In this document: in pieces, positions 19,754 to 61,606 of the stretch
How positions within the stretch are numbered: position 1 is the first letter of the stretch
Layout: every line of letters starts with the position of its first letter
NCBI GenBank assembly: GCA_035297365.1
Contig: DATGZA010000011.1
Coordinates: 64,001 to 128,000, forward strand
Reading direction: 5' to 3'
Origin: Nitrososphaeraceae archaeon
Lineage (GTDB): Archaea; Thermoproteota; Nitrososphaeria; Nitrososphaerales; Nitrososphaeraceae
DNA: 64,000 nucleotides
Notes under the pieces: generated by a model
What the model was told of the DNA's origin: nothing
Databases searched by the model: none
The model's input: the letters and a program-made list of their open reading frames with translations, nothing else
Position numbers and translations under genes: made by a program

Positions 19754-19772
19754 AGCCGAGAGCGGAACTCGA
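19754..19772 (-). other. tRNA 3'-end-like fragment (Thr-like)
   Basis: Minus strand TCGAGT-TCCGC-TCTCGGC-T fits tRNA positions 55-73; no 5' half found. Confidence 0.4.
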
Positions 19773-19800
19773 CACCTGAACATTGCTATAATTATTAAGT

Positions 19801-19908
19801 ATTTCTGAATTATTGTGTTTCTACGAAATACTTTGCAAATCATTTGATGTATCAGAGCCTTGATAGTCAACGGGGTCCGAGGATAGTCAACTGTTTTTGA
19901 CACAATTT
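19801..19908 (+). repeat. Dispersed site A3 (long L2 + A)
   Basis: 60-bp left arm matches 31921-31979; GAGCCT-tgatagtcaac-GGGGTC-cgaggatagtcaactgtttttgacacaattt. Confidence 0.9.
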
Positions 19909-20133
19909 AATATTTCGAAAGAAATACTTTAAAGAATGACCGATTTTGATATAATTGATACCAATCTTATCTAAATAATAATACTAATGCCAGAAATGAC
20001 TAAAGCTAAAATCTGAAATTTTCTTTTAAAAGGAACTTTTAAATGAAAACTTGTAACAATCAACAAGAATGGAACCCGTAATATAGTTTCACTGTGATTT
20101 ATATTAAATAATAAGGTTAGTATTTTTTTTACT

Positions 20134-20200
20134 ATGGTGACATATAAGATATGCAGCTAAGGAAGCCAAACCAGCTCTAACATCTTTTTACTCTGAAAGA
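20134..20200 (+). pseudogene. 5' stub of an alcohol dehydrogenase gene like 41160..42209
   Basis: gatatgcagctaaggaagccaaa (20148-20170) is identical to 41176-41198; similarity continues to about 20200. Confidence 0.7.
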
Positions 20201-20349
20201 AATGATAATTTAATTCAAAACTATAACTATAATAATAATAATAAATTGATTTATCTAATAGAATTTTTATTGAATAATAAACTTAAGTCTATTTAGTAGG
20301 AAAAACGTAATACTCTAGGATAATAAGAAAAATATACTCTTCTTTCTAT

Positions 20350-20994
20350 TTGTATTTCTATATGGTTTCTAAAAATAAATTATACTATTATTATTATCTT
20401 GTTATTGATTTAGAAGGTTCTTCTTCGCAAAATATTCCATTAGATATTCAAATTGAGAAATTAGAAAAATTGAGACTCTGTGTTAGTAGAATTTTAAACT
20501 TTAACACAAGTAGACTACACCAAAAGAAAGTAAGATATATCAACTCAACAGGGGATGGTTATTTTATTATTTTTGATAAAGGAGAAGATGCATTGAGATT
20601 TTCAATTGATCTTCAAAAATATTTAAATGACCACAATAAGAAAATAAAAAACAAAAAATTTTATTCACAACAAGAAACTGATTCAAAAACAATTATAGTT
20701 AATACTGGAATTTCTTGTGGAATCGGTAAACCTCTTAAACAAATAGATGGACAAATAGCTTATTGGGGATCGGATGTTATATTGGCTCATAGGATTGCTG
20801 ATTATGCTAAAGGAGGTTATATATTATGTAGTTCTGATGTATACAAAAATATGAAAAATATTAATTTTGGTGAATTTGTAAATCTTGAATGTTCAACAAA
20901 TTTTAAACACAATTTAAAAACAGATGTATATTTATTTTATAATAAAGAAGATAAAGAAAAATTCGAGAATGTAAATATTCATCTTTTAAGATGA
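20350..20994 (+). CDS. Class III adenylate/guanylate cyclase domain protein
   Basis: VIDLEGSS, STGDGYF, NTGISCG, WGSDVILAHRI. Confidence 0.75.
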   Translation: MYFYMVSKNKLYYYYYLVIDLEGSSSQNIPLDIQIEKLEKLRLCVSRILNFNTSRLHQKKVRYINSTGDGYFIIFDKGEDALRFSIDLQKYLNDHNKKIKNKKFYSQQETDSKTIIVNTGISCGIGKPLKQIDGQIAYWGSDVILAHRIADYAKGGYILCSSDVYKNMKNINFGEFVNLECSTNFKHNLKTDVYLFYNKEDKEKFENVNIHLLR

Positions 20995-21542
20995 ATCAGT
21001 ATTTTTTTCGAATAACTTTAACAAAAAAGTACGGTTTAAATTCAAGAATTAAAGTAAAATTCTAAATTTTATTAATATAATATGTTTCATAATTTTGATC
21101 TACATTACTTTTCTTTAGTTTTAGGGTGTTAGATCCATTAATTATACTTGCAATATCTAGCAATGAATTTCATATTCAACTTCTTTATTTTTCATTTCGT
21201 TCTTTACAATGAAAGATTCTGCAAACGCTCAGTTTCCACCTTGCTAATTCTTATTCCATCGAATGAATAAATAATACTATATTTTTATCATCACTATCTA
21301 GTTGATAAGATAATGCAGTATTTCAAGGATAGAAGTGAATCTTTTGATGAATACTATCCCTGTAATAATAATTAAAATTGTGATCTAGAACATGTATATA
21401 ATTGGATAAAGATATTCGTATATGCATATAATACAACCAATACAACAACAACAACAAATAAGATTCCATTTTTTTGTGGAAGGAAATCGATTATCCTTAA
21501 ATTAACGGGACGTGCATCTCAATAGAAATCCTTATATAGTTA

Positions 21543-23942: not shown

Positions 23943-24274
23943 TGAACACTAAAAAATATTTATCCTAAACCTTCTCCTATTTATGATATCATTACATGTG
24001 GAACAAAAAGTCAAATTAATTCAGTTAAATATAAAAAGTTTTGGAAGATTAAGAGAGTATAACAGATATTATAATAATTATGACTACAATGTTAGTTCTT
24101 TTGACGCTATTATTGGAAAACTAATAGATTTCTAGGAGAAACAAAATATTGTTGCTATAGAAGAAACAGATGGTACAGTAAACTGATACAGTTACAACAA
24201 TGACAACGACGAGAAGAAAATGAAGATATTAGAGTTTTATGCAAAAAACATGAGAAAAGTTACTACCCATTATT

Positions 24275-24376
24275 TATTTGTCTAATCCAATTTGCTTCAT
24301 GAATTCAGCATTATCCCAAAATAGATGTTCTTCGGCAATCGGTCCATCTTCATTCCATCGCGCTATTGAAGCCATA
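24275..24376 (-). pseudogene. C-terminal fragment of an ester cyclase (SnoaL-like) gene
   Basis: Reads ASIARWNEDGPIAEEHLFWDNAEFMKQIGLDK*; no N-terminal part present. Confidence 0.55.
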
Positions 24377-24549
24377 AATCTTATTCCTGAATAAGAATAC
24401 TTCCAATTCATCCTTTTTAAAAATTTATCTTCTATGATTGATAAAATTATTCATGAGTTTAATTGTTATTGATATTGCTAGAAATCAATTTTATTTATTT
24501 TACCTTATTATTTATTTATCAAAAATGTGTTATAACAACTAATTATGAA

Positions 24550-25116
24550 TCAATCTATCCACTTGAACGATTTTAACATTTTTTCAAAGTCTGGAACATA
24601 TTTTTCATATAGATTTCCAGAAGCCGTGTATCCTATACGATATGGTTCTTTATTATGAATTACATAATATTGTAAGAACTTGAATCCTTCCTTCTCTCCA
24701 ATTCCTTCTGCATATATCTGTCTTGAGGTTTCATTAGCCACTGTTACGTTTTTCTCTGAAATAACTTTCATTAAATTTTGTTCGTCTATCATATATTTTA
24801 CATATGCATCAAGAGGTGCATTTTTGATACCATAATAAGCATCTTGTTTAAAAGACGCTGCCGCGTAAGTTGTGTTTGACCCAAAATGTTCTGATGGCAT
24901 TGCACCTATTGAGTTAGACGGACCAAAACCCAGAAGTTCTGTAGCATAACCATCCGAAAAGACTTCATACCTCCAATTATCTGGAATTTCAACTTGAAAA
25001 TATAAAGTTTTTTCTATTGTAGTATTACCATTTTGTGCATAAATATTAATAGTAATTACAGAAAAATTGAGGATAACAATAACAAGAATAACACCACTTA
25101 AAGTGATTATTCTCAT
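24550..25116 (-). CDS. Secreted PsbP-related protein
   Basis: Signal peptide, F.VEIPDNW, Y.IGY...YEKYVPDFEKMLKSF. Confidence 0.75.
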   Translation of the reverse strand: MRIITLSGVILVIVILNFSVITINIYAQNGNTTIEKTLYFQVEIPDNWRYEVFSDGYATELLGFGPSNSIGAMPSEHFGSNTTYAAASFKQDAYYGIKNAPLDAYVKYMIDEQNLMKVISEKNVTVANETSRQIYAEGIGEKEGFKFLQYYVIHNKEPYRIGYTASGNLYEKYVPDFEKMLKSFKWID

Positions 25117-25419
25117 TATTAATTTTTTAATATCTTGTCTTTTAAAGATATTGATTTTTGAATATAATACTCACAGAAATTATCAGCTATTGTTTTCGTA
25201 GAAATCTATTAGTATCACAATTATGTCATCAAAAGAAATTGTATTGTCATCATCATCATGATTATAATATCTGTTATGCTCTCTTAACCTTAGAAAAGTC
25301 TCTCTTTTTAATTGAATTAACTTGAATTGTGGTTCTATTTCTCTTTGTTGTTCAAACAATTATAATTATAATAAAAGAAGGAAGATTTAGAATGAATATT
25401 TTTATTTATTTACTAGATT

Positions 25420-25554
25420 GAAAATATTTCATATTGTGCTTGTACATCAAATGCGATTCTTCTTATAGTCATTAATTGAGAATGATAAAATATTACAAGA
25501 TTCGATAATGTTTCTTCTAACCATAGATATATTAAATTCGTATTTAAAAATGCA
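25420..25554 (+). promoter_or_regulatory. Conserved leader of the CVNSNINVNG family (copy 4)
   Basis: attcttcttatagtcattaattgagaatgataaaatatt...gataatgtttcttctaaccatagatatattaaattcgtattt. Confidence 0.7.
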
Positions 25555-26180
25555 ATGAGCAATCAAAAGATAGTTAATGCGTCTATACTGGGAGCAATAC
25601 TAGCGACAGGTCTACTGGCTCTAAACCCATCAATGCTTACAAACGCACAAGCACAGATGTACAATTATGATCATGGAAATGATACTATAAAGTATACTCC
25701 GATTCAAAATCACCTGATGTAAACGTTCAGAAAATAAAATGTGTAAATAGCAACATCAATGTCAATGGTATAGATATAACCGAAATACCTCCAGATGGTA
25801 CGACTGCAGCAGAAGCAGCAGAAAATGAAGGCGGAGCAGGAGCAAATAGCCAGAATGATAATGGTCTTGCAGACAAAATAAACTTCGACAAAAACCTAGT
25901 AAACGTATGTGCAAATATAAATGATAACGAACAGACAAAAATCAGTTCTCCAAAAGAAGCAAATTTGCTTGTGACCAAAACTGTCACCTGTGAGGACTTT
26001 TCTGATGAGTCGGTTCCTTCGGTTCAACAGGGGGTAAATCCTTGTCCAGTACTTGAAGCCACAATAACCGAAGATCAATTTGATATTTCGGTATCAGGTA
26101 ACAATCCAGTTCGACCTCAATTTCAAGGTTCAGAAGGAGGACATGAAACTCATAGGACACTTACTATCAAAATAATATAA
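25555..26180 (+). pseudogene. CVNSNINVNG-module copy 4, frameshifted near 25690, with a short beta-rich C-terminal part
   Basis: MSNQKIVNASILGAILATGLLALNPS then, in another frame, VQKIKCVNSNINVNGIDITEIP...KNLVNVCANINDNEQ continuing into ORF 25965..26180. Confidence 0.8.
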
Positions 26181-26409
26181 CCGATCATTTTTTTATTTTT
26201 TGTTTATTAATCTATTACTCTAGTGATATTAATTTATTTTATTAATATAGCCATGGTTACCTTAGTGATGAAATTACCTTTCACTTAATTTTGGAATGAT
26301 GTTTTTCTACTGCTTCTCTGTTGTGTGGTTTCAACAAACAGTAGCATAGATTCAAATCTCTATTAAAGAAAATGTTAAGGTTGGTATACGCATGCTAAAT
26401 TCTAAGTTT

Positions 26410-26526
26410 AAAAAATGTTATTGAACCCTATTAATATACGGGCTCGGAGCGCTTCGAGTTTGACATTTAGTTGGGATCTGTCTTTACAAATTTAAACTTT
26501 AACTTTTTAAAATCAATGTGACCATT
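26410..26526 (+). repeat. Dispersed site B2 (L1 + B)
   Basis: aaaaaatgttatt-GAACCC-N11-GGGCTC-ggagcgcttc-GAGTTT-gacatttagtt-GGGATC; right extension matches 51542-51617. Confidence 0.9.
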
Positions 26527-26538
26527 TTAAAAAATCTT

Positions 26539-27258
26539 TTACCGTACAAAAATTTTAAAACTAGCCTCCCTCATGGGATCAAATCTTGGTGGTGGACCTT
26601 CGTTACCCTTAAGCAGATCAACAACTTTCAATTCTATGTCATGTTTTCCAGGAGACAGTTCATGCAACAATAAGAAATAACCAGTAGCTAGCGCCTTATA
26701 TGTGCCAGGATTGATTGTTCCCCAAATGTCTATTGGGCGCTCGGGAATCGTAATATTAAAAAAGTCAGTTTTAATTAATGATCCAGCAAGATCCACGTTT
26801 TTACCATCTACAGTAACTTTCATGTTGTTAAGGGGAGTAAGAATATTATCAGCACATTCTACTATTTCTGCATCAGTCATCGGACCAGAAGTACCACTAT
26901 CACAGAAAGTCGTTGTTATTGGAAGCATGACAGCTTTACCAAGTGGAACATTGCAATTATAGTTGATCTTGCCCTCACCTGGAATAACATCTGGTAAGAA
27001 CCATACAGGACCACTTTGCATTACAGAACATCTTTCAGAATCAGAATAATCCTTTACTGGATGTTTGTCGATAGGAATACCTGCCCACCACGTCCACCAT
27101 TTTGCCACCCATTCTGAATAAGGACTGTCATATGGCGAAGAATCTATTGTAAATATGTCAAAATTTGAGCTGGCTATAGTAGTAGTAATTATTCCGTTCC
27201 AACTGAGAATTATAATAAACAGAATAGGTATTATAATTCGAACAAATAGTGGGTTCAT
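26539..27258 (-). CDS. Secreted Cys-containing protein, paralog of 18822..19547
   Basis: Signal peptide; DSSPYDSPYSEWVAKWWTWW, QSGPVWFL, VTVDGK, LSPGKHDI. Confidence 0.8.
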   Translation of the reverse strand: MNPLFVRIIIPILFIIILSWNGIITTTIASSNFDIFTIDSSPYDSPYSEWVAKWWTWWAGIPIDKHPVKDYSDSERCSVMQSGPVWFLPDVIPGEGKINYNCNVPLGKAVMLPITTTFCDSGTSGPMTDAEIVECADNILTPLNNMKVTVDGKNVDLAGSLIKTDFFNITIPERPIDIWGTINPGTYKALATGYFLLLHELSPGKHDIELKVVDLLKGNEGPPPRFDPMREASFKIFVR

Positions 27259-27369
27259 AGTGAAAAGTATGTCCCTGTTCTTTATTTCTTTTTATATATA
27301 GATGTTTATCTTACCAACAGTATCTCTAATAAACATGTTTTAGATATTAATAAATAGTAAAGTCTGAGA

Positions 27370-28734
27370 TTGCACGAATCGAAGAAAATTCAATATATTT
27401 TTAGTTCATCAGGTCTTATTATTGTAGTAGGATTTGTAATTGTTCTACTTCATATAGTTGACATGACCGCAGGCGACACTTGGGCTTTGAACATCAATGA
27501 CCGTAATTCGTTTCAATATATAATAATATATTTTATAATCACGGTGACATCACTAGTTATCCAAGCTTTCCTTCTTATGATCTCTATAAAGATAGCATTT
27601 ACAACCAAGAAAGCAACCTCGCATCTATCAATGATAACCAGATACCTTTATGTAGGATCACATATGGCAGTAATGGGTTCCATTGCATATTTATTGGCAG
27701 AACAAGTAGTAACATATAGATATCATACGGTATTACTCGAGTTAATAGTAGCACTAAGTTTTATACCATCAATTTTAATCTTCATTTCATTAGCATTCAG
27801 AAATCTAAAGTCATTTTCATCCACTAAAAGAAAAATCGTTATGGTATACGGTATAGCCATAATTGCGATTGCAGTACAATTGATCATTGCCTTTTGTTAT
27901 ATAGAGATCAATCTCTATAGTAAACCTGAGATCATAACTCCTGATAGGAATCCATGGGCATCCTATTTCTATACAAGTATCCAAAGTAAAATGTCCGTAA
28001 GTTATGAGATTAGTGAGGATATTTCCTTTATTATCATATGGATGGCTTCTATATTACTTACTAAACCATATGCACAAAAGATTGGGAAAATAAAATATTC
28101 GATAACATTGAGTGTTCCAATAATATACTTCCTATTTCAGTATTCTCCACTATTGTTGGAACAAATGGGAACATTAAGTTTTCTTGTTATGGCAGAAGGA
28201 TCATTATTTTTATATTTTTACAATTTTGTTTTAAATACAGTTAATATAGGAACGGGAATATTAATTGGAATCTCATTTTACATATTATCTAGATCTTTGG
28301 TCTATGATGATTTAAAATATTACCTGATAATATGTGGCACAGGAATCATGATTATCTTCAGTAGTGGTGTTTCAACAATCTTAACCTTAGCTCCTTTTCC
28401 AGCATGGGCTATTGTTTCCCTTTCATTTATCTTGCCAGCATCATTCCTATTTTTAATTGGGCTCGATTCAGCAACATATTATATTGCAAGTGACACTTTG
28501 ATACGTAGGTATCTGTATAGACATAGGGATCAATTTGGTCTATTCCAAGCTTTGGGTTATACAAAAGCTTCCGACATTGTTGAGCAAAAGGTACGTAAAC
28601 AACTCGATAATCTCAAAGATAAAACATTTTTTGAACCAGTATATGAATTAGAAGATACGAAACAGTATATCCAGAAGGTAATAACAGAAATGAAAGAATC
28701 TGATACAAAAATAGATAGTTCAAAATCGGATTAA
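27370..28734 (+). CDS. Polytopic membrane protein, paralog of 17374..18735
   Basis: Similar length (454 vs 453 aa) and hydrophobic pattern; PFPAWA..IASD..LFQALG tail. Confidence 0.75.
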   Translation: MHESKKIQYIFSSSGLIIVVGFVIVLLHIVDMTAGDTWALNINDRNSFQYIIIYFIITVTSLVIQAFLLMISIKIAFTTKKATSHLSMITRYLYVGSHMAVMGSIAYLLAEQVVTYRYHTVLLELIVALSFIPSILIFISLAFRNLKSFSSTKRKIVMVYGIAIIAIAVQLIIAFCYIEINLYSKPEIITPDRNPWASYFYTSIQSKMSVSYEISEDISFIIIWMASILLTKPYAQKIGKIKYSITLSVPIIYFLFQYSPLLLEQMGTLSFLVMAEGSLFLYFYNFVLNTVNIGTGILIGISFYILSRSLVYDDLKYYLIICGTGIMIIFSSGVSTILTLAPFPAWAIVSLSFILPASFLFLIGLDSATYYIASDTLIRRYLYRHRDQFGLFQALGYTKASDIVEQKVRKQLDNLKDKTFFEPVYELEDTKQYIQKVITEMKESDTKIDSSKSD

Positions 28735-28831
28735 TTTTCGATTAAGTTAGGAATTAATTTATGTATATAAAAAGCAATAATCAATTGTATCTACTCTAAA
28801 AATAATAAGTTTTGATCGAGATATTAATTAG

Positions 28832-28901
28832 ATATTAATAAACTTATTAATGAGGGTGCAAACAGAGGATAGTCAACCGTTTTTCACATAATTTTGTAGT
28901 T
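28832..28901 (+). repeat. Dispersed site A4 (L3 + A, with AAAC inserted in the core)
   Basis: atattaataaact...gggtgc-aaac-agaggatagtcaaccgtttttcacataattttgtagtt; partner of 59168-59238. Confidence 0.8.
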
Positions 28902-29042
28902 TGATAATTTTTGTGATTACCTTATTCCTTCCTTATTTACAAAAGACTTTGATATTAATCAAAAGTTTTGTTATTCAATTCCTTAAACACATAAAATAAG
29001 AGTAAGATGAGGAGATGCTTCTGTAAAAAAATTTTAGGTAAA

Positions 29043-29267
29043 TTAAAGTTCTTTACGTTCTACACCAAATGCTACTTTTATTGTAGTTTTATATTGAGTA
29101 ATATTACCTGTATTAGGATCTACTGTACCAGTCTTACTTATGACTTCGAGTCCTGTAATTCCACGTATCGTCTTCGTTGCCTCATCTAGGGCAACTTTGA
29201 CTGCCTCTTGCCATCCCTTATCTGAACTACCAACAAGTTCGGTTATTGTTGCAATATGATGAGTCAT
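29043..29267 (-). CDS. Dodecin family flavin-binding protein
   Basis: ELVGSS..GWQEAV..AL.EATKTIRGI...YK..IKVAF. Confidence 0.9.
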   Translation of the reverse strand: MTHHIATITELVGSSDKGWQEAVKVALDEATKTIRGITGLEVISKTGTVDPNTGNITQYKTTIKVAFGVERKEL

Positions 29268-29781
29268 ATTTGTTATGAGTATTCATGCTTATTAATGGTT
29301 ATCAATAAAAGAATCTAAGAATTATTATAAAAACATGCAAATTGACAGAATTATAAATTTGTTGTATGCAATCGACCGTCAAATGGAAATTAATTATTTT
29401 CAATATTTTTAATATATACTTTAATAGGTTTTAAATCACTATAACAAAACAAAAATTTGGTTATTTATTAACCAGTTTTTGATTTAATAGTCTGAATCCT
29501 TTGTTTCTCTGTATGATGATAGAATAAAAACTAATAACGATTTTTATTTAAAAGATGTGAATATTATCTTAAATTAACAGAACCCAATTTTCCCTATCAA
29601 CGATAAGTCATATTCTAAGTCATCCAGATTGAACGCTTAAGTACACCTTTATTCGTGATTGAAAATAACTGTTGTAAAAAGGAAATTTCGATATTTAAAA
29701 TTGATAGTAATGGTAGGATTATCATTAACTAAATGATTATTTTTATTTGTAGGTATAAAAGAATAAGAATCGCTACAAATA

Positions 29782-30900
29782 TTGTACAATATGAATTACA
29801 TTGGCACCATGCATGAGAATGAACTAAAAAATGGAGAACATAAAAAAGTAAAAGTTAAGGACAAAGAAATAATCATTTTTAAATTAAATGATAATATAAC
29901 TGCCATTAGTAATACATGCCTTCACAAAGGAGGACCTTTATCTGAAGGAAAAGTGGAAAAAAAATATGGTGGTTACTATATTACTTGTCCATGGCATGGA
30001 TGGGAATATAATCTTGTTACGGGAAAGGCACCTCCAGGATATGAAGAACAACAAGCAATGTACGATGTAATTGTAAAAGATAATAAAATACACGTTTCAG
30101 AGAAGCCTATTATATTACCTTTTAGGGGAACACATAAAGAAAATCCTTTACAAGACCTTATAGAGTTAAAATACGATACAAGTTCTACTTCTCTGAATAT
30201 ATTAGGAATTTCAACTACAAATATGAATGAGAAATTACCTAGGATTTCAACATCAGAATTAGTATTGCAAGAAGCACTCGATTATGCTAGGAGAGAGTAT
30301 CAAGCAAATACAGTAATGATAAGACTTTCAGATATTGAATTTAGGCATTGCGAAGGATATTATAGTAGAAATGAAATGGCGTGTACTTGGCCTTGCTCGA
30401 TATCCGAAATGGATAGTAATGATGGAATGAATGATATATATCGAAAAATGATTCTATGGGCTGACATAGTAGTAGTTAGCACCCCTATTCGATGGGGTAA
30501 TGCTTCATCACTTTATTACAAAATGATTGAAAGGCTTAATTGTGTTCAAAATCAAATAACATTACATAATCGCGTTTTAGTAAACAACAAAGTTGCAAGT
30601 TTTATAATCACAGGTGGCCAAGATAACATACAAAGTGTTGCTGGACAGATGATGATGTTTTTTAGTGAGTTAGGTTTTACATTACCCCCTTATTCATTTA
30701 TGGGATGGAGTAGAGGTTGGATAGCTGAAGATATGGAACATAATGTACAACAATTCAAGAAATCAAGGTATATCAAGAGATCTTTAAGAGATCTAGTTGA
30801 TAATGATATAAAATTATTAAGACAATTGAAAGGAGATCCTTGTATCCATATTAATTTCCCTCAACCAAAAATTACTGATACTTCTTCTTATAATAAATAA
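29782..30900 (+). CDS. Rieske [2Fe-2S] domain fused to a flavodoxin-like NAD(P)H-dependent FMN reductase domain
   Basis: CLHKGGPL...CPWHGWEY; CEGYYS...CTWPC, ADIVVVSTPIRWG, ITGGQD. Confidence 0.85.
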   Translation: MYNMNYIGTMHENELKNGEHKKVKVKDKEIIIFKLNDNITAISNTCLHKGGPLSEGKVEKKYGGYYITCPWHGWEYNLVTGKAPPGYEEQQAMYDVIVKDNKIHVSEKPIILPFRGTHKENPLQDLIELKYDTSSTSLNILGISTTNMNEKLPRISTSELVLQEALDYARREYQANTVMIRLSDIEFRHCEGYYSRNEMACTWPCSISEMDSNDGMNDIYRKMILWADIVVVSTPIRWGNASSLYYKMIERLNCVQNQITLHNRVLVNNKVASFIITGGQDNIQSVAGQMMMFFSELGFTLPPYSFMGWSRGWIAEDMEHNVQQFKKSRYIKRSLRDLVDNDIKLLRQLKGDPCIHINFPQPKITDTSSYNK

Positions 30901-30920
30901 ACTTCTCAAAGGGATAGCAA

Positions 30921-31640
30921 ATGGATAGTGATGTTATTTCTTATAACAAAATTATACCTTTGAGAACTATTTGTAGGGTAATTGCTAAAATAAAGTCACA
31001 GCAAATAGAATCTTTACCCCACTTTGGTCATGAAGCATTATTTTTTCAGAATAATGCAGTAACAACCGGACTAATGAATAATACAAAAGAACTTAAGATA
31101 GATTTTTTTAGTGGCTTATTTTTATCTTACAAGAATGAAGATACTATACAAATCGATTTGACATCTAAAAATATTCAAGATATATATGACTTTTTTACTA
31201 ATAATTTTGATCTTTCTATATCCCAAGAAATCACGAATCTGGATAGTCAAGAATTACAAAATCATTATTATTTTATGTCAAAGGCTAACCTTAGCTTAGA
31301 AATATTTAGAATGAGGTTGGGTGGAAAGTTTACGCTTGTGCATTTGTGGCCACATGGATTCGATCTTTCTGTAGAATATTTTACTGGAATACAGAATCAG
31401 CAAATTGGAATTGGAATATCACCTGGAGAAGAAAATATTTCCTTACCTTATCTCTATATCAATCCTTATCCTTTCAATCAAGAAATCAAAGAGGAAAAAT
31501 TACCATTAGGGGAATGGTATGATAAATCATGGAAGGGAATAAAAGTCGAGTGGAATGAGATATCTTCTAAAAATGAAAAAGAAATTGCATCTTTCATCTC
31601 CCAATTGTTTAAAATATCATACAAAAATTTTATTAAATGA
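30921..31640 (+). CDS. Hypothetical protein (DUF5996-like)
   Basis: VHLWPHGFDLS...GISPG...PYLYINPYP. Confidence 0.6.
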   Translation: MDSDVISYNKIIPLRTICRVIAKIKSQQIESLPHFGHEALFFQNNAVTTGLMNNTKELKIDFFSGLFLSYKNEDTIQIDLTSKNIQDIYDFFTNNFDLSISQEITNLDSQELQNHYYFMSKANLSLEIFRMRLGGKFTLVHLWPHGFDLSVEYFTGIQNQQIGIGISPGEENISLPYLYINPYPFNQEIKEEKLPLGEWYDKSWKGIKVEWNEISSKNEKEIASFISQLFKISYKNFIK

Positions 31641-31920
31641 TATTGTAAAACTCCTTTGTTAAATTAAGCAGTAAAAATTATAGGCAAAAATATCCCGTCT
31701 ACTATATGAAAATTAAACTTAGAAATATAACATCTAGCTTTATTGTAATGTATTTTTCATATTTGTACTTGTTCTAAGTTTTAGAAAATATAGTTAAAAT
31801 ACTGCAACCTTTTAAAGATCAAAAAAGAAGTTATGTTGCTGAATGGTATTGGATTCACCGATTTGGTTCATTGCAGATCTATAACAAGCATAGAAGTATT
31901 TCCGTATTCATAGTAGGTAA

Positions 31921-32035
31921 ACATTTCTAAATTATTGTCTTTATAAAATACTTTGCAGAAAGTTGATGTAAAAGAGCCTTGATACTATATGGACTCGGAG
32001 GGTAGTAAACTGTTTTTGACACAATTTTGAAGTTC
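31921..32035 (+). repeat. Dispersed site A5 (long L2 + A)
   Basis: GAGCCT-tgatactatat-GGACTC-ggagggtagtaaactgtttttgacacaattttgaagttc. Confidence 0.9.
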
Positions 32036-32211
32036 TATATCAAAAATATCCACAAATTGTTCTTACATTCTAACAAAAATACCATCGATATCTCACTTTT
32101 GATATGGGTGTAGAATGGATGAAAAACAATAGTAAATTAGAAAATTTTACATTACTCAACTACTTACCTATTAAAAATTTTTAACGTGATACCTATAATT
32201 CTATTTAATTA

Positions 32212-33516: not shown

Positions 33517-33612
33517 CTAATTATAAAAAATAAAAAAGGTCTATCAAAATAGGATGTTATAGTTTAAATATAGTCTAAATTAAGCAATGTTTACCATTTT
33601 TTTTATTCTTTG

Positions 33613-33686
33613 AAAAATGTTATTGAACCATACTAATATAGGGGCTCGGAGGTTTGTAAAATGATTTTGACACAATTTTGTAGTTC
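33613..33686 (+). repeat. Dispersed site A6 (L1 + A)
   Basis: aaaaatgttatt-GAACCA-N11-GGGCTC-ggaggtttgtaaaatgattttgacacaattttgtagttc. Confidence 0.9.
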
Positions 33687-33713
33687 TATAGTTAGAAAAA
33701 ATAAATTATATCT

Positions 33714-34022
33714 TCATTTTCCAATTTTATTATGCACATCATCATATCTTTTTAGACCTACAATTTTTACGGTATTAAATAAGCCTAGTCCTGCCTCAAT
33801 GCATAGGCTCTCTATATCATGAGCACTTTCTGCTTCGAAAATTATCATCCATTCATGTTCAAGGACTGACATGTAGAATGCTTCAATATTTTTTACTCCA
33901 TATTTTGATTTATTTTGTTCTAGTTTATTTTTGATTTCAAGAAATACTTTTTTAGCCTCCACATTGTTCATAGGACAAGATTCTGGACTATGTATAGCAA
34001 ATGCACCAAAGAGATTTACCAT
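33714..34022 (-). CDS. Hypothetical protein (HSPESCP motif)
   Basis: 102-aa ORF; H.P.SCP...EH...IFEAES pattern. Confidence 0.7.
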   Translation of the reverse strand: MVNLFGAFAIHSPESCPMNNVEAKKVFLEIKNKLEQNKSKYGVKNIEAFYMSVLEHEWMIIFEAESAHDIESLCIEAGLGLFNTVKIVGLKRYDDVHNKIGK

Positions 34023-34165
34023 AATATTTTTTATAAAGAAATGAGGATATTAAGTTATACGATTTATAATTTAATATTTTTTAGTGAATTGCATCTTTTA
34101 CAATATATTGATTCTGTTACATCAATCGTTAGACTATTATTTAAAAAATTTTTAAATGTGCTAAA

Positions 34166-35218: not shown

Positions 35219-35480
35219 TTCACTAAAAAGTATACTATAGGAAATTTAAAGAATAGGTTTACAAAGTATTAAAAAATAATTATTACAAGAGAAAAAAAAC
35301 AATCTGCAACGATAAATCTAAAGTAATTTAAAGCAAGAAGGAGATTGTAAAAAATCTTCCTGTTTGTAAATTAAGAGAGTTAAGTGGATATCATATCCTC
35401 GGTTATTAGTATTATATTAAAAAAATATATTTTGCATTTGAACTGAATTTAGTTATATATCAAAAACTTACAGCTGCAGA

Positions 35481-35520
35481 GAGACGATAATCAATTGATT
35501 TTGACACAATTTTGTAGTTC
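35481..35520 (+). repeat. Dispersed site A7 (right arm A only)
   Basis: gataatcaattgattttgacacaattttgtagttc. Confidence 0.75.
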
Positions 35521-48047: not shown

Positions 48048-49238
48048 TTGAGTCGTTTTTCTCATAAAGGAATAAGATTTTCAGGTGACTCCATAAAAAG
48101 TTGTATCTGTTTTATTGACGTTATAGATTCAACAAAAAATACTTTGAAATTTAGTGATTTAAAAGATACAAGAAAATATTACTCGACATTTATTAACTCC
48201 ATAAATGAAATAGTAAAAAAGTATAATGCAAAGATTATAAAAAATATTGGCGATTCATTACTATTTTATTTCCCTGATACTGCTGATACTATGAAGATTT
48301 CAAGGTTTGTAAAGGCATTAGAATGCGGTTTGGAAATTCTTGAAAATCGTCAAAATGTTAATGATAAAGTAGCAGCTGAAAACTTTCCGCCATTTAACTA
48401 TAGGATAAGCATGGATTACGGAGTGGTTGAAATAGCCTTATCAGGCGAGTACAATCAATTAGATATTTTTGGATCCGCAGTAAACCTATGTGCCAAAATT
48501 AATATTCTATCTAACCCAAATGAATTAGTAATAGGAGACAATTTGTACAGAATCCTAAAAGCTTATTCACCTATTGTCGAAAAGCATTACTTGTTTAATT
48601 TTTCTAAAGATTTTACTGTTTTAAATGGTTGTGCAACTTGCTCTCAAAAGGATGTATGCAAATTGTTTCGTGTATCAGGAGAGTATATGACTTTAGAGGA
48701 TACTAAATACTCGTGCTATATTCTTAAAAGAAAATATCCAAAAAAATTATCCCATAAAAATCAATATATTTCCAAATTGAATAATACAAGAGGTCCTCAA
48801 TTTTCTGTTCTTGCTGGTCAGAGAGATCAGGTTGAATATGAGAAAGAATATAGAGATTATAATAATATAAAAAAAATTATTCTGGTTGATGATGATCCTG
48901 AAGTTTTATACACTTTCAAATCATTTTTGACTGAATTTAAGTACAATGTTAATTCCTTTACAGATTACGAACAGGCATTACAATACATGAGATCAAATCC
49001 ATTCTATGATAATCTTTTGATAATAACAGATATTGTATTAAAAAAACTGAATGGATTGCAGTTTTATCTACAGGCCAAAACTATTGATCCGACTATAAAA
49101 TTTCTTTTTATTACGGCATATGATATTGTAGATGAGGTAATATCCGTAATCCCTGGACTGAATAAGAGTGATATAATTAGAAAACCTATAGAAAAAAATA
49201 GGTTTGTGAATAAGGTAAATTCACTACTACCTATTTAG
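48048..49238 (+). CDS. Class III adenylate/guanylate cyclase with C-terminal response-regulator receiver domain
   Basis: FIDVIDST, KNIGDSLL, RISMDYG, DIFGSAVNLCAKI; ILVDDD...ITDI...NG...FITA...KP. Confidence 0.88.
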   Translation: MSRFSHKGIRFSGDSIKSCICFIDVIDSTKNTLKFSDLKDTRKYYSTFINSINEIVKKYNAKIIKNIGDSLLFYFPDTADTMKISRFVKALECGLEILENRQNVNDKVAAENFPPFNYRISMDYGVVEIALSGEYNQLDIFGSAVNLCAKINILSNPNELVIGDNLYRILKAYSPIVEKHYLFNFSKDFTVLNGCATCSQKDVCKLFRVSGEYMTLEDTKYSCYILKRKYPKKLSHKNQYISKLNNTRGPQFSVLAGQRDQVEYEKEYRDYNNIKKIILVDDDPEVLYTFKSFLTEFKYNVNSFTDYEQALQYMRSNPFYDNLLIITDIVLKKLNGLQFYLQAKTIDPTIKFLFITAYDIVDEVISVIPGLNKSDIIRKPIEKNRFVNKVNSLLPI

Positions 49239-49652: not shown

Positions 49653-49830
49653 GACTTTATTATACAAATGGGTTCTGAGGGCTTCGAGTATGACATGTAG
49701 TTGGGATCGGTTAACTAGTATTTATTAATTTGGTAACTTATTTGAATATTTGCCAAACAATTTCTAATATATTAGAAAAATGAAAAAGGGAATCAATGGA
49801 ATTTGAACCCTTCGATAAAGTGGGACCATT
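49653..49830 (+). repeat. Dispersed site B7 with long right extension
   Basis: GACTTT-N11-GGGTTC-tgagggcttc-GAGTAT-gacatgtagtt-GGGATC...gggaatcaatggaattt-GAACCC-N11-GGGACC. Confidence 0.88.
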
Positions 49831-51480: not shown

Positions 51481-51617
51481 ATCTGCTTGGCCCCATTGAC
51501 TAAATGGGCTCAATAACTAAAACTTAAGCTTGGAATGCTTCGAGTTTGACATGTAATTGGAATATGTTTTTTAAGATTTAAAATTTGACTTTTCGTATTC
51601 ACCAATAATGTGACCAC
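51481..51617 (+). repeat. Dispersed site B8 (L6 + B)
   Basis: atctgctt-GGCCCC-attgactaaat-GGGCTC...ggaatgcttcgagtttgacatgtaattggaat. Confidence 0.85.
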
Positions 51618-52074: not shown

Positions 52075-52250
52075 CACACTAACTAACTATCACTGCCATA
52101 GAAGCTAGATCTATCTTTTTGTTAGTGGTTATTACGGTGTTATTTACGAATTTAATATATCTGTGGTTAGAAGGAACATTATCTAATGTTCTAATGTTCT
52201 ATCATTCTGAGTCATTAACTATAGTAAGGATAGCAATTGATCTTCAAGTT
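52075..52250 (-). pseudogene. CVNSNINVNG-family copy 5: conserved leader plus decayed signal-peptide stub
   Basis: Leader nearly identical to 4456-4570 including the palindrome; stub reads TNKKIDLASMAVIVS*. Confidence 0.65.
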
Positions 52251-52306
52251 CAATTGGTTGACGGGCTCGGAGGATTGTCAACTGATTCTGACACAAATTT
52301 ATAGTT
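52250..52306 (+). repeat. Dispersed site A10 (L4 + A)
   Basis: tcaattggttgac-GGGCTC-ggaggattgtcaactgattctgacacaaatttatagtt. Confidence 0.88.
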
Positions 52307-52484
52307 GAGATCATTTTTTCTATTATTAATTATAATACTTTTAAATGTAATAAAAAAATTACTAATTTTATATAATACTATAATATTAGTTCAAATAATT
52401 CTGTAGAATAAGATAACTTCGAGGTTCATTTTATAATAATTATTAAAAATTTTGGGAATTAAAAAAGGAGAATTAATTAAGTTA

Positions 52485-56352: not shown

Positions 56353-56441
56353 ATCTGCTTGGTCCCATTTACTAAATGGGTTCAATTGTAAAAATACCAG
56401 GCTTCGAGGGCTTCGAGTATGACATGTAGTTGGGAGCGGTT
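56353..56441 (+). repeat. Dispersed site B9 (L6 + B)
   Basis: atctgctt-GGTCCC-atttactaaat-GGGTTC...gcttcgagggcttc-GAGTAT-gacatgtagtt-GGGAGC-ggtt. Confidence 0.88.
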
Positions 56442-56848
56442 GTCTGTTATTTAATTTTATTTTTTAACATCAAGAATAGTCTACACAAAATGTTAGGTCG
56501 AGGAGTGGCATTAGAATACTTATTCATCGAATATGGGTGGTTTCTATTATTAAGTATAAATATTTAACATTAAAATATTATTTTTCGTATTTCACCAAAA
56601 GATATTCTAGATTAAAATCACTTGTATTATTTACATCGTTGTAAGCAGAACCAAAGAGAGTTTTCAATCATGGTACTTTTAAAGTCTTGGTATACTAGTA
56701 AATTTTTTTAAATCCATATCTGATTATTTTTAATATCGATATTCACATAAATTATTTTAAATATTGATTTGATATCAAATTAATGGCAAAAATCAGAACA
56801 AATTATAAAAAAATATCTGTTATAATAATTTTATTATTATCTTTATTT

Positions 56849-58849
56849 TTATCCAACTACCATGTTGAACAAAGATGATATTCCATCATTGTCACTCAGG
56901 TCAATAAAGGGGTTGAATGTCAGGCCGTTGTTGTTACTTGCTCTAAAGAAGATATCTGTATCAACACCATTACTGTTATCTCTCCAAGCAACATAGACAT
57001 TGTTGCCAGCGACTATCATCTGTTGTAAATCCGATATTCCATCATTGTCACTCAGGTCAATAAAGGGGTTGAATGTCAGGCCGTTGTTGTTACTTGCTCT
57101 AAAGAAGACATCATCGTCTCCACCATTACTGTTATCATTCCATACAACATATACATTTTTTCCAGAAGAAAGTATTTGCTTGTCGTCAAATTCTTTAGAG
57201 TTCCCATCATTGTCACTCAGGTCAATAAAGGGGTTGAATGTCAGGCCGTTGTTGTTACTTGCTCTAAAGAAGATATCTCGATCACCACCATTACTTTGGT
57301 CATTCCATATAATGTATACATCATTGCTAGACACAAGCATTTTGGGTCTAAATGAATTTCCATCATTGTCACTGAGATCAATGACAGAATTGAATGTGAG
57401 GCCTATGTTATTACTTGCTCTAAAAAAGACATCAGTATCTCCTCCATTAATTTGATCCCATACAACATAGACATTGTTTCCAGAGGCAAGCATCTGTATG
57501 ATTGATGCATCACCCATAACGTTAAGATCAATAAATGGGTTGAATGTCAAGCCATTGTTGTTACTTGCTCTGAAGAGTAAATTACCACCGTTGGGAATAT
57601 CTTGATGCCACACGACATAGACATTGTTGCCAGCAGTAACAATCTGTGGTCTACCAGTCGCTGGTTCAGGGGGACTGCTGAGTTCTATAACAGAATTGAA
57701 TGTCAGGCCGTTGTTGTTACTTGCTCTGAAGAGGAAATCATCACCATTGCTTTCGTCACTCCACAAAACATAGACATTATTGCTAGAGACAAGCATTTGT
57801 GGACTAAAGGAGTCCCCATCATTATCACTAAGGTTAATAACAGCGTTGAAATTCTGTCCGTTGTTGTTACTTGCTCTAAAAAAGACATCTATATCGCCAC
57901 CATTAGATCTATCATTCCACAAAACATATACATTATTGCCAGAGACACGCATTTGCTGATCAGATGGTGATCCATCACTATCACTTATATCAATAAAAGC
58001 GTTGAAATTCTGTCCGTTGTTGTTACTTGCTCTAAAGAGAATATCGTTAGCGCCACTACTGTGATCTACCCATGAGACATAGATATTATTGCCAGAGACG
58101 AGCATTTGAGGATTACCAGAGTTTCCATCATTGTCACTCAGGTCAATAACAGGGTTGAATGTCAGGCCGTTGTTGTTACTGACTCGAAAGAAGATATCTA
58201 CATCACCGCCGTTACTCGTATCTTCCCAGACAACATAGACATTGTTGCCAGAGACGAGCATTTGCGGTAAGAAACCCGAATCTCCATCATTGTCACTCAG
58301 GTTAATAACAGGGTTGAATGTCAGGCCGTTGTTGTTACTTGCTCTAAAGAAGATGTCAAAATCGCCACCGTTAGTGTTATCTCTCCAAGCAACATAGACA
58401 TTATCATCTTCTGGTTGTTGTTCTACTACTATGCGTTGATTATTCAAATTCAAATTTGCACAGATGTTTACAAGATTTTTATTTGTAACGATATTATTAT
58501 TATCATCGTTATGTTTATGATCTTTTAAATTATTATTGTTAGTATCAGCAGAGAAAGTATCTATATCAGACTCTACTCCATTTACATTCAGGTTATCGTT
58601 GCTACAGTCAATAATTTGTTGATTGTTATTTCTTGTGGTTGGAATAGTAAAGGTAGGATAATAAGCATCTTCTTTTTCACTATAGTTATCCTCAACTGCT
58701 ATAGCATCATTCAAAACTCCAAGAGTGGATAAATATGAAATAGGAGATACTGAAAATATATTTCCAATTGTACTAAGAGACAAAATTGTTGTTAGAAATA
58801 TTATATGGATTTTCCGGTGTTTGCAACTACTATTACGATACATATACAA
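56849..58849 (-). CDS. Secreted BNR/Asp-box repeat (sialidase-like propeller) protein with a diverged CVNSNINVNG module (copy 7)
   Basis: IIDCSNDNLNVNGV...KNLVNICANLN, then nine repeats of NVYVxW...FFRASNNNGLTFN...LSDNDG. Confidence 0.85.
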   Translation of the reverse strand: MYMYRNSSCKHRKIHIIFLTTILSLSTIGNIFSVSPISYLSTLGVLNDAIAVEDNYSEKEDAYYPTFTIPTTRNNNQQIIDCSNDNLNVNGVESDIDTFSADTNNNNLKDHKHNDDNNNIVTNKNLVNICANLNLNNQRIVVEQQPEDDNVYVAWRDNTNGGDFDIFFRASNNNGLTFNPVINLSDNDGDSGFLPQMLVSGNNVYVVWEDTSNGGDVDIFFRVSNNNGLTFNPVIDLSDNDGNSGNPQMLVSGNNIYVSWVDHSSGANDILFRASNNNGQNFNAFIDISDSDGSPSDQQMRVSGNNVYVLWNDRSNGGDIDVFFRASNNNGQNFNAVINLSDNDGDSFSPQMLVSSNNVYVLWSDESNGDDFLFRASNNNGLTFNSVIELSSPPEPATGRPQIVTAGNNVYVVWHQDIPNGGNLLFRASNNNGLTFNPFIDLNVMGDASIIQMLASGNNVYVVWDQINGGDTDVFFRASNNIGLTFNSVIDLSDNDGNSFRPKMLVSSNDVYIIWNDQSNGGDRDIFFRASNNNGLTFNPFIDLSDNDGNSKEFDDKQILSSGKNVYVVWNDNSNGGDDDVFFRASNNNGLTFNPFIDLSDNDGISDLQQMIVAGNNVYVAWRDNSNGVDTDIFFRASNNNGLTFNPFIDLSDNDGISSLFNMVVG

Positions 58850-59167: not shown

Positions 59168-59238
59168 ATATTAATAAACTAATACGTAGGCGCTCAAACG
59201 GAGGTGTGTAAACTGTTTTTGACACAATTTTGTAGTTC
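59168..59238 (+). repeat. Dispersed site A11 (L3 + A, with AAAC inserted in the core)
   Basis: atattaataaact...ggcgctc-aaac-ggaggtgtgtaaactgtttttgacacaattttgtagttc. Confidence 0.85.
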
Positions 59239-59311
59239 AGAATAAGTATTTTTTTAAAGCGTAATAATATTTTGATCGAACTTATAATATTGTATATAAC
59301 TTATAATACTA

Positions 59312-59746
59312 ATGGCAGGAATGACTAAAGATGAAATCCGAAATTTTCTTTTAAAAGGCACTTTTACAGGAAAACTCGGAACAATTAACAAAAATGGAAC
59401 ACCGCATGTAGTTCCTATTTGGTATACATTAGATGACGAGGATAATATTTTATTTAATACAGATAATAATTCAGTAAAAGCAAAAAATATTAAACGTGAC
59501 AATCGAGTCCGCTTATGTGTAGATGATCAGACTCCTCTTTTCTCATTTGTTACTATTGACGGTGTAGCAGAAATAATTAGTAAAGAGCCAAAAGAAGTTT
59601 TCAAATGGGCTAAAATTATTGCTGCAAGGTATATGGGTGATGATAAAGCCGAAGAGTATGGTAGGAGAAATAGTTCAGAAGGTGAACTATTAATAAAAAT
59701 AAAACCAACCAAGGTTATTGGTCAAAAGGATACAGCAGGATGGTAA
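59312..59746 (+). CDS. PPOX class (probably F420-dependent) oxidoreductase
   Basis: GTINKNGTPHVVPIWY, K.KNI.RD.RV.LCVDD, IAARYMG. Confidence 0.9.
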   Translation: MAGMTKDEIRNFLLKGTFTGKLGTINKNGTPHVVPIWYTLDDEDNILFNTDNNSVKAKNIKRDNRVRLCVDDQTPLFSFVTIDGVAEIISKEPKEVFKWAKIIAARYMGDDKAEEYGRRNSSEGELLIKIKPTKVIGQKDTAGW

Positions 59747-59765
59747 ATAATCAATTCAACTTTTC

Positions 59766-59893
59766 ATAAATGAATTATTTATTTTATAAATTAATGAATT
59801 AAAGGTTAAAAATTATACGGGTCGTTGGTATTATAGAGGGTTCTGAGGGCTTCGAGTTCTCATTATAACAGGGTTCGACTACCGTGTATTTAG
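59766..59893 (+). repeat. Dispersed site B10 (L5 + B variant)
   Basis: GGGTTC-tgagggcttc-GAGTTC-tcattataaca-GGGTTC-gactaccgtgtatttag. Confidence 0.85.
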
Positions 59894-60428
59894 CTTTTTC
59901 TCATGATAACTTAAAAGAATATTTATCTTTACTAATACACAAACTTCCATTGAAAATTTTCTGTAATTCAAAAAAAATTAGAGTTCTACAGCAACCATAA
60001 TTATTTTCTAACAAAATTTTTATCTAAATAGTGATAACGTGGTAATACTTTAACATATATCAGAGTATAGCTAGCAATATATGCCTGAAAACGCAAATAA
60101 ACAGCGACAACAGGACAACAAACAAGAGAAAAAGGTTGTTAATCATAAAAAGAGAAAATTTAAAAGTACGTAGTTCTTTAGGATTTTTATCCTGATAAAT
60201 TTATTTTGCATTATTTATTGGTAGAGTCGCATTCTCTATCTAGTTATATTTTTCTCTAAAAATTCACTAATCTATTAACTTCAGCATTTTTCACTAATAC
60301 AACAATATTTTAGTATTACGAACAGAATTTCCAGCAACTTTAATTTGTATCTATTTTTTTAGGTCTTATTGATTTAGATATATACCTAAAAAACTCTTTC
60401 ATTAATGACTTATATCCATAATTAAATA

Positions 60429-61236
60429 TTATTTTAATGAAATCAAATTACTATTTTTATCATTTTCGTCATCATCACAATCACAACTATTACAACTTTT
60501 TGATTTAACATTCACTTTTTTATTTGCTTCAATGAATACTACTGTTAAGGCTCCTACTAATAATGCTAGTGGAATTGCCAGAACAATAGAATAATTATAG
60601 AAGACTATTCCAATAGTTTCAGCAGTTAATATACAAGCGCTTTCTGCAGTAATTAAAATAACCAGACTAGTTTTTAATATATAGTTTAAGTTTGGCTCTT
60701 TGTTTAGATATGATATTTTCTTTATGCCTTTTATAAAATATCCAAATGTTAGAAACATGTTTGAAAGAAATCCTTTATTTGATTGCTGCTCTAGCACTGA
60801 ACAACAACTTTCAATCTTTCCCTCGGTTCCAGTATATCGCCCTAATATTGTCATAAAAGTAGTAAAACCAGCAAGAGCATATCCTATAATGTATGCTAAT
60901 GTAATTCCTATTAAATTGAAACCAAATGTATACTCCAATATTCTCACCTATTTCTGCTGCCATTATGCAAAGGATTTCTATCCCTAGTGCAGTGGGATAC
61001 ATATTTTTTGTAATGTTTAAAAATAATTTACTCTTTGATTTTAGAGATAAATCTGGTAGATATAAATCTGGAGATAAAGATTTTTTTCTCAATATATTAG
61101 TATGAATAGTAATACAACAGCAAATCTCCTTAATACAATTTTTACATCGTATACCATTATTTATAATATTATTATTGTTATAATTACAATTTTCAATAGA
61201 ACATTTGCATTCAGAACAGACAATATACTTTCCCAA
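60429..61236 (-). pseudogene. Cys-rich membrane protein split by a frameshift near 60928
   Basis: ORF 60811..61236 (...AAEIGENIGVYI) joins ORF 60429..60947 (FGFNLIGITLAY...); Cys clusters at both ends and in the loop. Confidence 0.6.
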
Positions 61237-61588
61237 TATTGTATTATTTCTAATTACAAGATATTAGGTTTTACTTCTTTTTCGTCTTATAATAGTGACA
61301 ATTAAAAAATCAATTATTTACTGAATCAACTAGAACTGATGTGGATTCTTTTGGAGCTACATAAGCAATAAAAAATATGTATACTGCTATTATTATACTT
61401 CCAATTGAATCCATATTGGTATCTCAAAATACCCTGCTAGAACGCTTCCCAATCCAACAATTGAAGCAGAACCATCCATCCTTTATAGAATTTTTTGCAT
61501 CCAAATTCAAAGTTCATCAGTTTATTTTTTTTGAAATTTATGGAAAATTGCAATTTAGATATTGATTAAACATTATAACCTAAAAGAG

Positions 61589-61606
61589 CGCCCGGGCCAG
61601 GATTTG
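61589..61606 (-). other. tRNA 3'-end fragment (Asp-like), possible att scar
   Basis: Minus strand CAAAT-CCTGG-CCCGGGC-G fits tRNA positions 56-73; GC-rich in AT-rich context; no 5' half. Confidence 0.5.

Follow-up and report, generated by a model that had tools for sequence, protein, structure and literature searches.

Why should a stretch of archaeal DNA carry sequences resembling the 3' ends of transfer RNA (tRNA) genes again and again, all of them on one strand? The stretch in question, here called the window, is 64,000 nucleotides (nt) long and covers positions 64,001-128,000 of contig DATGZA010000011.1 (C11) in the Nitrososphaeraceae archaeon assembly GCA_035297365.1, which is 2.52 Mb in 110 contigs, 97% complete and ~30% G+C. 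Coordinates without a prefix are those of the window, those with a contig number are those of the contig. An original prediction, made from the letters of the window, had read a recurring site core and two isolated motifs as tRNA 3' ends. The answer put forward here is that the window very probably lies in an island of more than 100 kb, carried by a soil ammonia-oxidising member of the Nitrososphaerales, that arose through round after round of site-specific integration into the 3' end of tRNA-Arg(TCG).

The three motifs do lie where they had been placed on the minus strand, as reading the sequence confirms. The minus strand of 19754-19772 is TCGAGTTCCGCTCTCGGCT, that of 61589-61606 is CAAATCCTGGCCCGGGCG, and the B core, TCGAAGCCCTCCGAGCCC, has five matches in the window at three or fewer mismatches, all on the minus strand, with shuffled sequences giving 0.01. 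The core was searched ungapped; the hyphens with which it was originally written matched nothing when taken as gaps. That the window holds no full tRNA also stands, with ARAGORN and Rfam in agreement. As a chance control each 19-mer of the window was scored against the last 19 nt of the 33 host tRNAs found by the Rfam tRNA model, some of which contain introns, an archaeal trait, and 20 Markov-shuffled windows were scored alongside. Matches of 15/19 or better numbered seven, every one of them on the minus strand, and each shuffled window had 0-3 (mean ~1). Five of the seven are cores of B or C type (15-17/19) and one is 61588-61606 (17/19); these cores and the 61588-61606 motif are well above chance, with independent support. 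The 3' 17-mers of the host tRNAs have 32 extra genomic copies at two or fewer mismatches, against 1-3 for shuffled 17-mers, and tRNA-end remnants are therefore a general feature of the host genome.

The tRNA from which the core derives is found in a congener, G069, with a near-complete genome of 3.5 Mb in 10 contigs. There the terminal 20 nt of an intact tRNA-Arg(TCG) gene (C10:1,147,352-1,147,426, an ARAGORN call) are the B-type core, matching at 20/20, and the same sequence is 100% identical at three sites in the host. The acceptor 5' strand of this tRNA, GGGCTCG, pairs perfectly with CGAGCCC of the core, and the assignment of the core to tRNA positions 55-72 proves correct on this gene. The isotype is Arg, which was not one of the three tentatively listed (Ile/Val-like, Thr-like and Asp-like). 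Directly after the tRNA comes an arm of the type called R3 below, identical to the R3 arm at C11:137,7xx in the host, and ~60 nt later the intact open reading frame (ORF) of a 436-amino-acid tyrosine integrase. With the core equal to the end of a tRNA and a tyrosine integrase directly behind it, the suggested origin of the sites from a tRNA attachment (att) sequence is borne out. The first unit behind the tRNA is 4.6 kb long, comprises the integrase, an unknown gene and a SIR2-like gene, and ends in a C-type arm and core.

In the host a site profile built from 14 seed sites was run over the whole genome with nhmmer, giving 30 matches: 25 on C11, two on the 9-kb contig C6, one on C60, one on C26 and the tRNA-Arg(TCT) gene itself. 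All 25 C11 sites are on the minus strand, between C11:40,365 and 143,447, with 16 inside the window, and C11 makes up only 6% of the genome. A site is a composite of ~100 nt consisting of a left arm (A, B or C), the core CTCCGAGCCCG and a right arm (R1, R2, R3 or R4). The B and C left arms keep tRNA identity from the T-loop onward and the A arm only over the last 11 nt of the tRNA (from the T-stem), up to the discriminator base. Both arms are conserved from one unrelated cargo to the next, the left over ~45 nt and the right over 25-75 nt, and the aligned sites join left and right arm types in many combinations, as is expected of junctions between neighbouring integrated units. Spacing is typically 1.5-13 kb, the cassettes between sites holding 1-3 genes. 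A repeat that is short (~100 nt), intergenic and related to a tRNA might also be a non-autonomous transposon, resembling a miniature inverted-repeat transposable element (MITE) or a short interspersed nuclear element (SINE), with copies spread through intergenic regions. This is most improbable, as all 25 C11 copies share one orientation, 27 of the 30 matches are on two contigs, the arms are modular and the sites coincide with synteny breaks and, in relatives, with a tRNA and an integrase. Neither a direct-repeat search nor the aligned sites gave any sign of terminal inverted repeats or target-site duplications, for which no dedicated search was made.

It is the right arm that connects the sites to the integrase. 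At 9-11 nt past the core it carries the motif GGGYTCAnATAC, of which R1, R2 and R3 are variants. Intact paralogues of the integrase are numerous in the genus, 14 of 22 genomes having a match at E <=1e-30. At most of the loci examined in relatives the gene lies behind a tRNA 3' end or an att core; 9-11 nt further on comes a motif like GGGYTCAnATAC, 50-70 nt upstream of the integrase start. The tRNAs involved include Arg-TCG, Arg-CCT, Lys-TTT, Val and others. As R1, R2 and R3 are variants of the one motif, every junction in the window is tied to this integrase family, and as the motif is present whatever the acceptor sequence of the tRNA, it is read as a putative protein-binding arm motif and not as a stem. 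A hairpin of core and right arm was considered and rejected, for although 80% of cells are paired none of the six pairs is compensatory, and for two of four sites the fold was no better than that of shuffled sequences. The 436-amino-acid integrase scores 26.3 bits on PF00589, just under the cut-off of 27.1 bits, and 28.3 bits on the NCBIfam XerA/integron-integrase model (cut-off 220); no sequence relative was found in the PDB at E <=0.01.

Parts of the same integrase persist in the host. A stub at C11:137,614-137,706 (minus), directly behind an R3 arm, is 90% identical to residues 1-31, and a longer remnant at C11:60,114-60,464 (minus), also directly behind an R3 arm, is 44% identical and contains 8 stops. 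A third remnant, C11:149,754-149,900, is an N-terminal stub with 78% identity to residues 1-49. This last stub is fused in frame behind a GC-richer DUF1326-like fragment (C11:149,754-150,030; L006:9754-10030), which is a scar of deletion or recombination.

The array was also compared across genomes. The site model was found in 47 of 151 genomes of the family and in large numbers only in the genus of the window, where 20 of the 21 congeners searched have the site family, with at least 32 copies in the top genome, and where the sites on most contigs share one orientation. Between host and G069, C11:1-85,179 is colinear with C10:1,206,754-1,274,056 at 86-96% identity, and this stretch includes distal sites that have decayed in parallel in both; from C11:85,180 to 151,608 only scattered cassettes are common to the two, in another order. 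The synteny breaks between species fall at sites. Sites on the minus strand put the tRNA-proximal side at high coordinates, and the variable part of C11 is thus its proximal part, as would be expected if entry happens at the tRNA; the island probably grew from that side. The array region of G069 is ~215 kb long with 27 site matches and one intact integrase of the family, which is the one next to the tRNA. Within it (C10:1,147,352-1,361,871) five plus-strand sites behind the tRNA are followed by ~180 kb of minus-strand sites, implying a large internal inversion, and an IS-type rve transposase is also present.

A 1.3-kb cassette on C6 (C6:194-1509) runs from core to core with one 185-amino-acid ORF and no integrase. 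It is 99.2% identical to its counterpart in G069, compared with 96% for a 20-kb stretch of the core genome, and 95% identical to that in another genome, G117, compared with 68-74% for the core stretch, figures that show recent exchange. In G069 this cassette sits directly behind the integrase-bearing unit.

Such a cassette raises the question of whether the integrase-less units are mobile in their own right. On an integron-like platform each would have a complete attP-like site when circular and would be inserted and excised in trans by the single integrase beside the tRNA. This is possible, if on the doubtful side. The conservation of both arms around unrelated cargo would fit it, as would the presence of one intact family integrase for the 27 site matches of G069, the shuffled order of cassettes in the part of the array nearest the tRNA, and the C6 cassette, which has perfect cores and is 99% and 95% identical where the core genomes are 96% and ~71%. 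Yet the position of that cassette in G069, directly behind an integrase-bearing element, means that it may have travelled along by accretion, the integrase stubs behind R3 arms indicate that at least some cassettes are decayed elements, cassette genes lie on both strands with no sign of a common promoter, and no circles or empty sites were seen in the assembled contigs of public runs.

In the preferred reading, accretion at tRNA-Arg(TCG), a tyrosine integrase would recombine an attP composed of left arm, core and right arm with the 3' end of the tRNA gene, restoring the tRNA. Repeated entries at the tRNA would stack the units and push older ones outward, and deletions would strip the integrases, leaving most units as cargo cassettes of 1-3 genes. 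Half-sites, in which an A arm and CTCCG are followed by unrelated sequence (28863-28906, 59199-59254 and the site on C60), suggest that exchange takes place inside the core. The island also holds junctions of related systems with other tRNA specificities, namely Asp at 61588-61606 and Val just outside the window, and the system may be mobile at the present day.

A number of observations sit less easily with accretion at this tRNA. The host assembly, 97% complete and in 110 contigs, lacks tRNA-Arg(TCG) among its 33 tRNAs and contains nothing that matches the 5' two-thirds of the gene in G069, and its sole close tRNA, Arg(TCT), which matches the core at 17/18 with the match ending one base short of the tRNA end, is on another contig (C79) without an adjoining array. 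There is no intact integrase of the family in the assembly, only the remnants above. C11 has no PF00589 match, Pfam scans of 10 ORFs in each of its end regions (of which 8 and 9 lie outside the outermost recognised sites) gave no recombinase, and the only intact tyrosine integrase near a host tRNA, next to tRNA-Thr(CGT) on C12, is just distantly related (23% identity). The anchor is therefore inferred from relatives: a cognate tRNA and integrase, which the original prediction had proposed to look for at the array boundary, were not found on C11 of the host, but exist as an intact pair in relatives. Furthermore, R1 and R2 arms in the host never have integrase remnants behind them, so decay of full elements cannot explain every cassette. 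The inverted repeat of core and arm lacks compensatory change (0/6 pairs), and in G117 only the downstream end of the C6-type cassette lies at a site, a decayed one.

Excision is likewise a point on which accretion finds no help. Contigs of four public soil runs were compared with 24001-44000 of the window, giving joints at or near cores that run from 26440 to 31994, from 26457 to 42289, from 43708 back to 31994 and from 42276 back to 37978, with sides of only 23-55 nt. Across the joints at cores the short sides measure 21-58 nt; because of this, and because the sites are a repeat family so that the joints may come from other junctions, they are not counted as excision products; none was shown in the assembled contigs of these runs. 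In the same contigs 35270-37184, with a Kelch gene, and 39959-41017, the spacer between a gene of the MFS family and an alcohol dehydrogenase (ADH) gene, are replaced by 212 and 1,620 other letters respectively, the ends of both replacements being off the site cores.

The sites of the window, all on the minus strand, differ in how complete they are. Near its low-coordinate end an Arg-type site with an A left arm, a degenerate core and an R1 right arm lies at 2059-2154 (nhmmer E 5e-15), followed by a degenerate B-type site at 5680-5745, aligned as a member of repeat family D10. Identified from nhmmer matches and a reading of their arms are the Arg-type sites at 6916-7048 (A arm, core 11/11, R1-like arm), 19826-19931 (A arm, core 9/11, R2 arm), 31958-32049 (A and R2 arms), 33598-33720 (A and R1 arms), 37826-37956 (A arm, R3-like arm), 44764-44876 (A and R2 arms) and 52228-52340 (A arm, core 11/11, R3-like arm), as well as an A arm with a decayed core at 35486-35544 and a degenerate B-type site at 43671-43776. 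The same approach gave the half-sites at 28863-28906, where the A arm and first core bases give way to an unrelated R4 right arm, and 59199-59254, with an A arm and an R4 arm. Core search, nhmmer and the scan for tRNA ends together identify the Arg-type sites at 26383-26512 (B arm, tRNA-like core 26439-26457, R1 arm) and 42213-42339 (C arm, tRNA-like core 42264-42282), a B-type site at 49670-49740 (core 49669-49687, 15/19 to a tRNA end) and a B-type site with a decayed core at 56400-56463. A degenerate B-type site at 51528-51593 came from a repeat search and was aligned, and a C-type tRNA-Arg-like core at 59837-59855 from the core search and tRNA-end scan. A separate repeat of ~130 nt (77-87% identity) occurs at 3655-3781, 4446-4573 and 52123-52250, the third copy abutting the site at 52228-52340.

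Of the two isolated motifs, the one at 61589 belongs to a junction of another kind. The Asp-type junction extends over 61540-61640 on the minus strand, within which 61588-61606 matches the last 19 nt of the host tRNA-Asp(GTC) at 17/19, and the motif starting at 61589 matches this tRNA, which is on the small contig C64, at 16/18. The similarity covers the T-loop through to the tRNA end plus ~45 nt of downstream flank. The tRNA is Asp(GTC) since the Rfam alignment puts CUGUCAC in the anticodon loop; a call of Gly(TCC) by ARAGORN rests on an odd intron and was set aside. The tentative Asp-like label of the original prediction thus holds for this motif. As the Asp-type left arm and core recur in two congeners, G069 (on C4) and G112, this is a second att type, and in both it occurs without kdp.

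The same fragment had been proposed as the edge of the island, before the kdp genes, and this is not upheld. The first gene of the kdp block, kdpA, lies at 62114-63763 on the plus strand (Pfam KdpA, 8.5e-162), and kdpABC with two further ORFs lie between the Asp-type site and an A-type half-site at C11:133,351-133,385. Beyond kdp there are Arg-type sites at C11:134,7xx, 137,7xx and 143,3xx, the last recognised site reaching C11:143,447, and then the integrase remnant at C11:149,754-149,900. Because Arg-type sites and an integrase remnant continue past it, kdp is cargo inside the island and not beyond its edge. No counterpart of the kdp block of 250 nt or more was found in the G069 array.

The other isolated motif, the "Thr-like" 19754-19772 (minus), finds no support as a tRNA or att remnant. 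Its 15/19 match to the host tRNA-Thr(GGT) is at chance level, such a match being expected about once per window. It lies just beyond the conserved 75-nt R2 arm, ~110 nt downstream from the site core at 19881, and it is unique to its cassette, not being found in the other five cassettes with an R2 arm. Some features would fit a genuine att remnant, since diverged, left by an element whose target was a Thr-like tRNA in another host lineage: the motif shares its strand with every other tRNA-like fragment, the plus strand having no match of 15/19 or better, and its discriminator T and GGCT ending resemble host Thr tRNAs. A similar 19-mer (17/19), the sole other one in the 151 family genomes, also exists in a different genus (G064), as an orphan outside any tRNA and with no large ORF nearby. 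That origin is unlikely, however, as a chance match of this quality is expected, no tRNA with this ending was found at two or fewer mismatches in the 151 genomes, and the motif lacks a GGGYTCAnATAC arm behind it and is absent from the other R2-arm cassettes. It is read as chance, or as a remnant too decayed to prove. Tentative as it was, the Thr-like call, and with it the reading of 19754 as a tRNA 3' end, is not supported: tRNAs of the host or its relatives do end in sequences like the core and the 61589 motif, but in the 151 family genomes none does so for 19754.

What the cassettes carry was judged from a Pfam scan of the 30 largest ORFs of the window, among which there is no integrase and no evident phage or plasmid replication gene. 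Redox functions are represented by NDH-2, two luciferase-like monooxygenases, a Rieske/FMN reductase, two Zn-dependent alcohol dehydrogenases, a nitroreductase, a PNPOx-like protein and a cupredoxin. There are an EEP nuclease/phosphatase and a phosphoesterase, two MFS transporters and KdpA for transport, and Hsp20, a 3-methyladenine glycosylase and a Dps-like ferritin for stress and repair. Kelch, PsbP-like and BNR proteins and two cyclase-domain proteins complete the list, and the genes are on both strands. Genes with an adenylate/guanylate-cyclase domain recur as cargo (20350-20994 and 48048-49238 in the window, L035:13995-15209 in G069), one of them being fused to a response-regulator receiver domain. 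At 56849-58849 (minus) a 666-amino-acid ORF consists of approximately ten tandem units of ~156 nt with weak BNR/Asp-box matches. Two PNPOx-like paralogues, at 59312-59746 (+) and C11:137,841-138,323 (+), each adjoin an A-type site and both match one cassette of G069 at 80-84%; as the two match a single cassette there, the cassette has been duplicated within the array.

How does such an array compare with known systems? Integrons are ordered arrays of small cassettes with one site orientation, in which the sites are attC hairpins, entry is at attI and the integrase is of the IntI type. They have reportedly been found in archaeal metagenome-assembled genomes. The ordered cargo cassettes and single site orientation seen here, and in G069 the one integrase at the entry end, are reminiscent of them. 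The junctions, however, are tRNA-derived att sequences and not attC hairpins, entry is at a tRNA gene and not at attI, the integrase reaches 28.3 bits on the XerA/integron-integrase model where the cut-off is 220, and the cassettes are often multi-gene and on both strands. The array is not an integron, having neither an IntI-type integrase nor attC sites. In Streptococcus, accretion and mobilisation involve cis-mobilisable elements (CIMEs), which are att-flanked remnants of integrative and conjugative or integrative and mobilisable elements (ICE/IME) that lack a recombinase and can travel with an intact element next to which they stand in tandem at a tRNA-type site. Those are bacterial, linked to conjugation and usually present as one or two remnants, in contrast to the dozens here.

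The nearest counterpart is the Prochlorococcus island built by tycheposons. These are tyrosine-recombinase elements that enter particular tRNA genes and push older elements into the island, which contains scattered partial tRNAs, fragmented integrases and niche-adaptive cargo for nutrients and stress (bioRxiv 10.1101/2020.12.28.424599). Integration at a tRNA and an island with partial tRNAs and decayed integrases are found here too. The differences are that the host here is an archaeon, that the integrase family is apparently different and is very divergent, that no replication module is seen in the cassettes scanned, and that one island here has at least 25 junctions, each keeping a long composite site. 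Within the same phylum, a survey of 20 genomes of Thaumarchaeota described integrated elements with tyrosine recombinases that target the 3'-distal parts of tRNA genes with att sites of median 17 bp, and noted that tyrosine-recombinase elements can form arrays by re-use of a site (Krupovic et al. 2019, PMC6563490). The cryptic elements of that survey resemble the present ones in phylum, recombinase type, tRNA 3' targets and short att; the survey describes individual elements, and in the sections consulted no integrase-less cassette array of 100-215 kb or tRNA-Arg(TCG) anchor was found described (PMC6563490). Keyword searches of the open-access literature gave no description of such an array in the Nitrososphaerales, which is not proof of absence.

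Taken together, this is an accretion island anchored at tRNA-Arg. Its well-preserved composite att junctions are unusually numerous, and a whole genus of soil ammonia oxidisers has conserved it. Accretion anchored at tRNA genes is already known, but neither so long a cassette array nor this architecture of sites and integrase was seen described in the keyword searches or in the sections consulted. The island may go further, though this can be offered only tentatively, and be a genus-wide gene-capture platform at tRNA-Arg(TCG), with dozens of cassettes shuffled in trans and exchanged between species, an independently evolved archaeal equivalent of integrons and tycheposon islands. Little is known of how ammonia-oxidising archaea, which play a major part in the soil nitrogen cycle, gain accessory genes. 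One tRNA-anchored locus of 100-215 kb gathers genes for stress, transport, redox and phosphatase functions, joined here by a whole kdp potassium-uptake block, with a cassette order that varies between species. The signature of tRNA-Arg core plus GGGYTCAnATAC offers a simple way to find such islands and cassette pools in metagenomes, and the sites and the integrase family are a defined pair of substrate and recombinase for biochemistry. For annotation, the kdp genes and their neighbours in the window are to be treated as flexible island cargo and not as core genome.

Other tRNA ends in the host show comparable features. On C58 four copies of the tRNA-Lys(TTT) 3' end in the same orientation (5930, 9717, 11146 and 20632, minus) form a second array, each with a GGGTTC-type arm motif 9-10 nt on; the source gene, which bears an intron, is at C64:497-584, and in relatives this tRNA end is followed by a paralogous integrase. 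C64 itself is 2,436 nt long. Its sole contents are two intron-bearing tRNAs that face outward, Lys(TTT) and Asp(GTC), and it ends a few hundred bases past each of them, which gives the impression that the assembly broke at repeated att arrays. The 3' end of tRNA-Val(TAC) is copied at C11:136,696-136,712 (window coordinate 72,696, outside the window) with one mismatch and at C9:52,440-52,456 with none, and behind the C9 copy lies a heavily broken integrase pseudogene with 17 stops.

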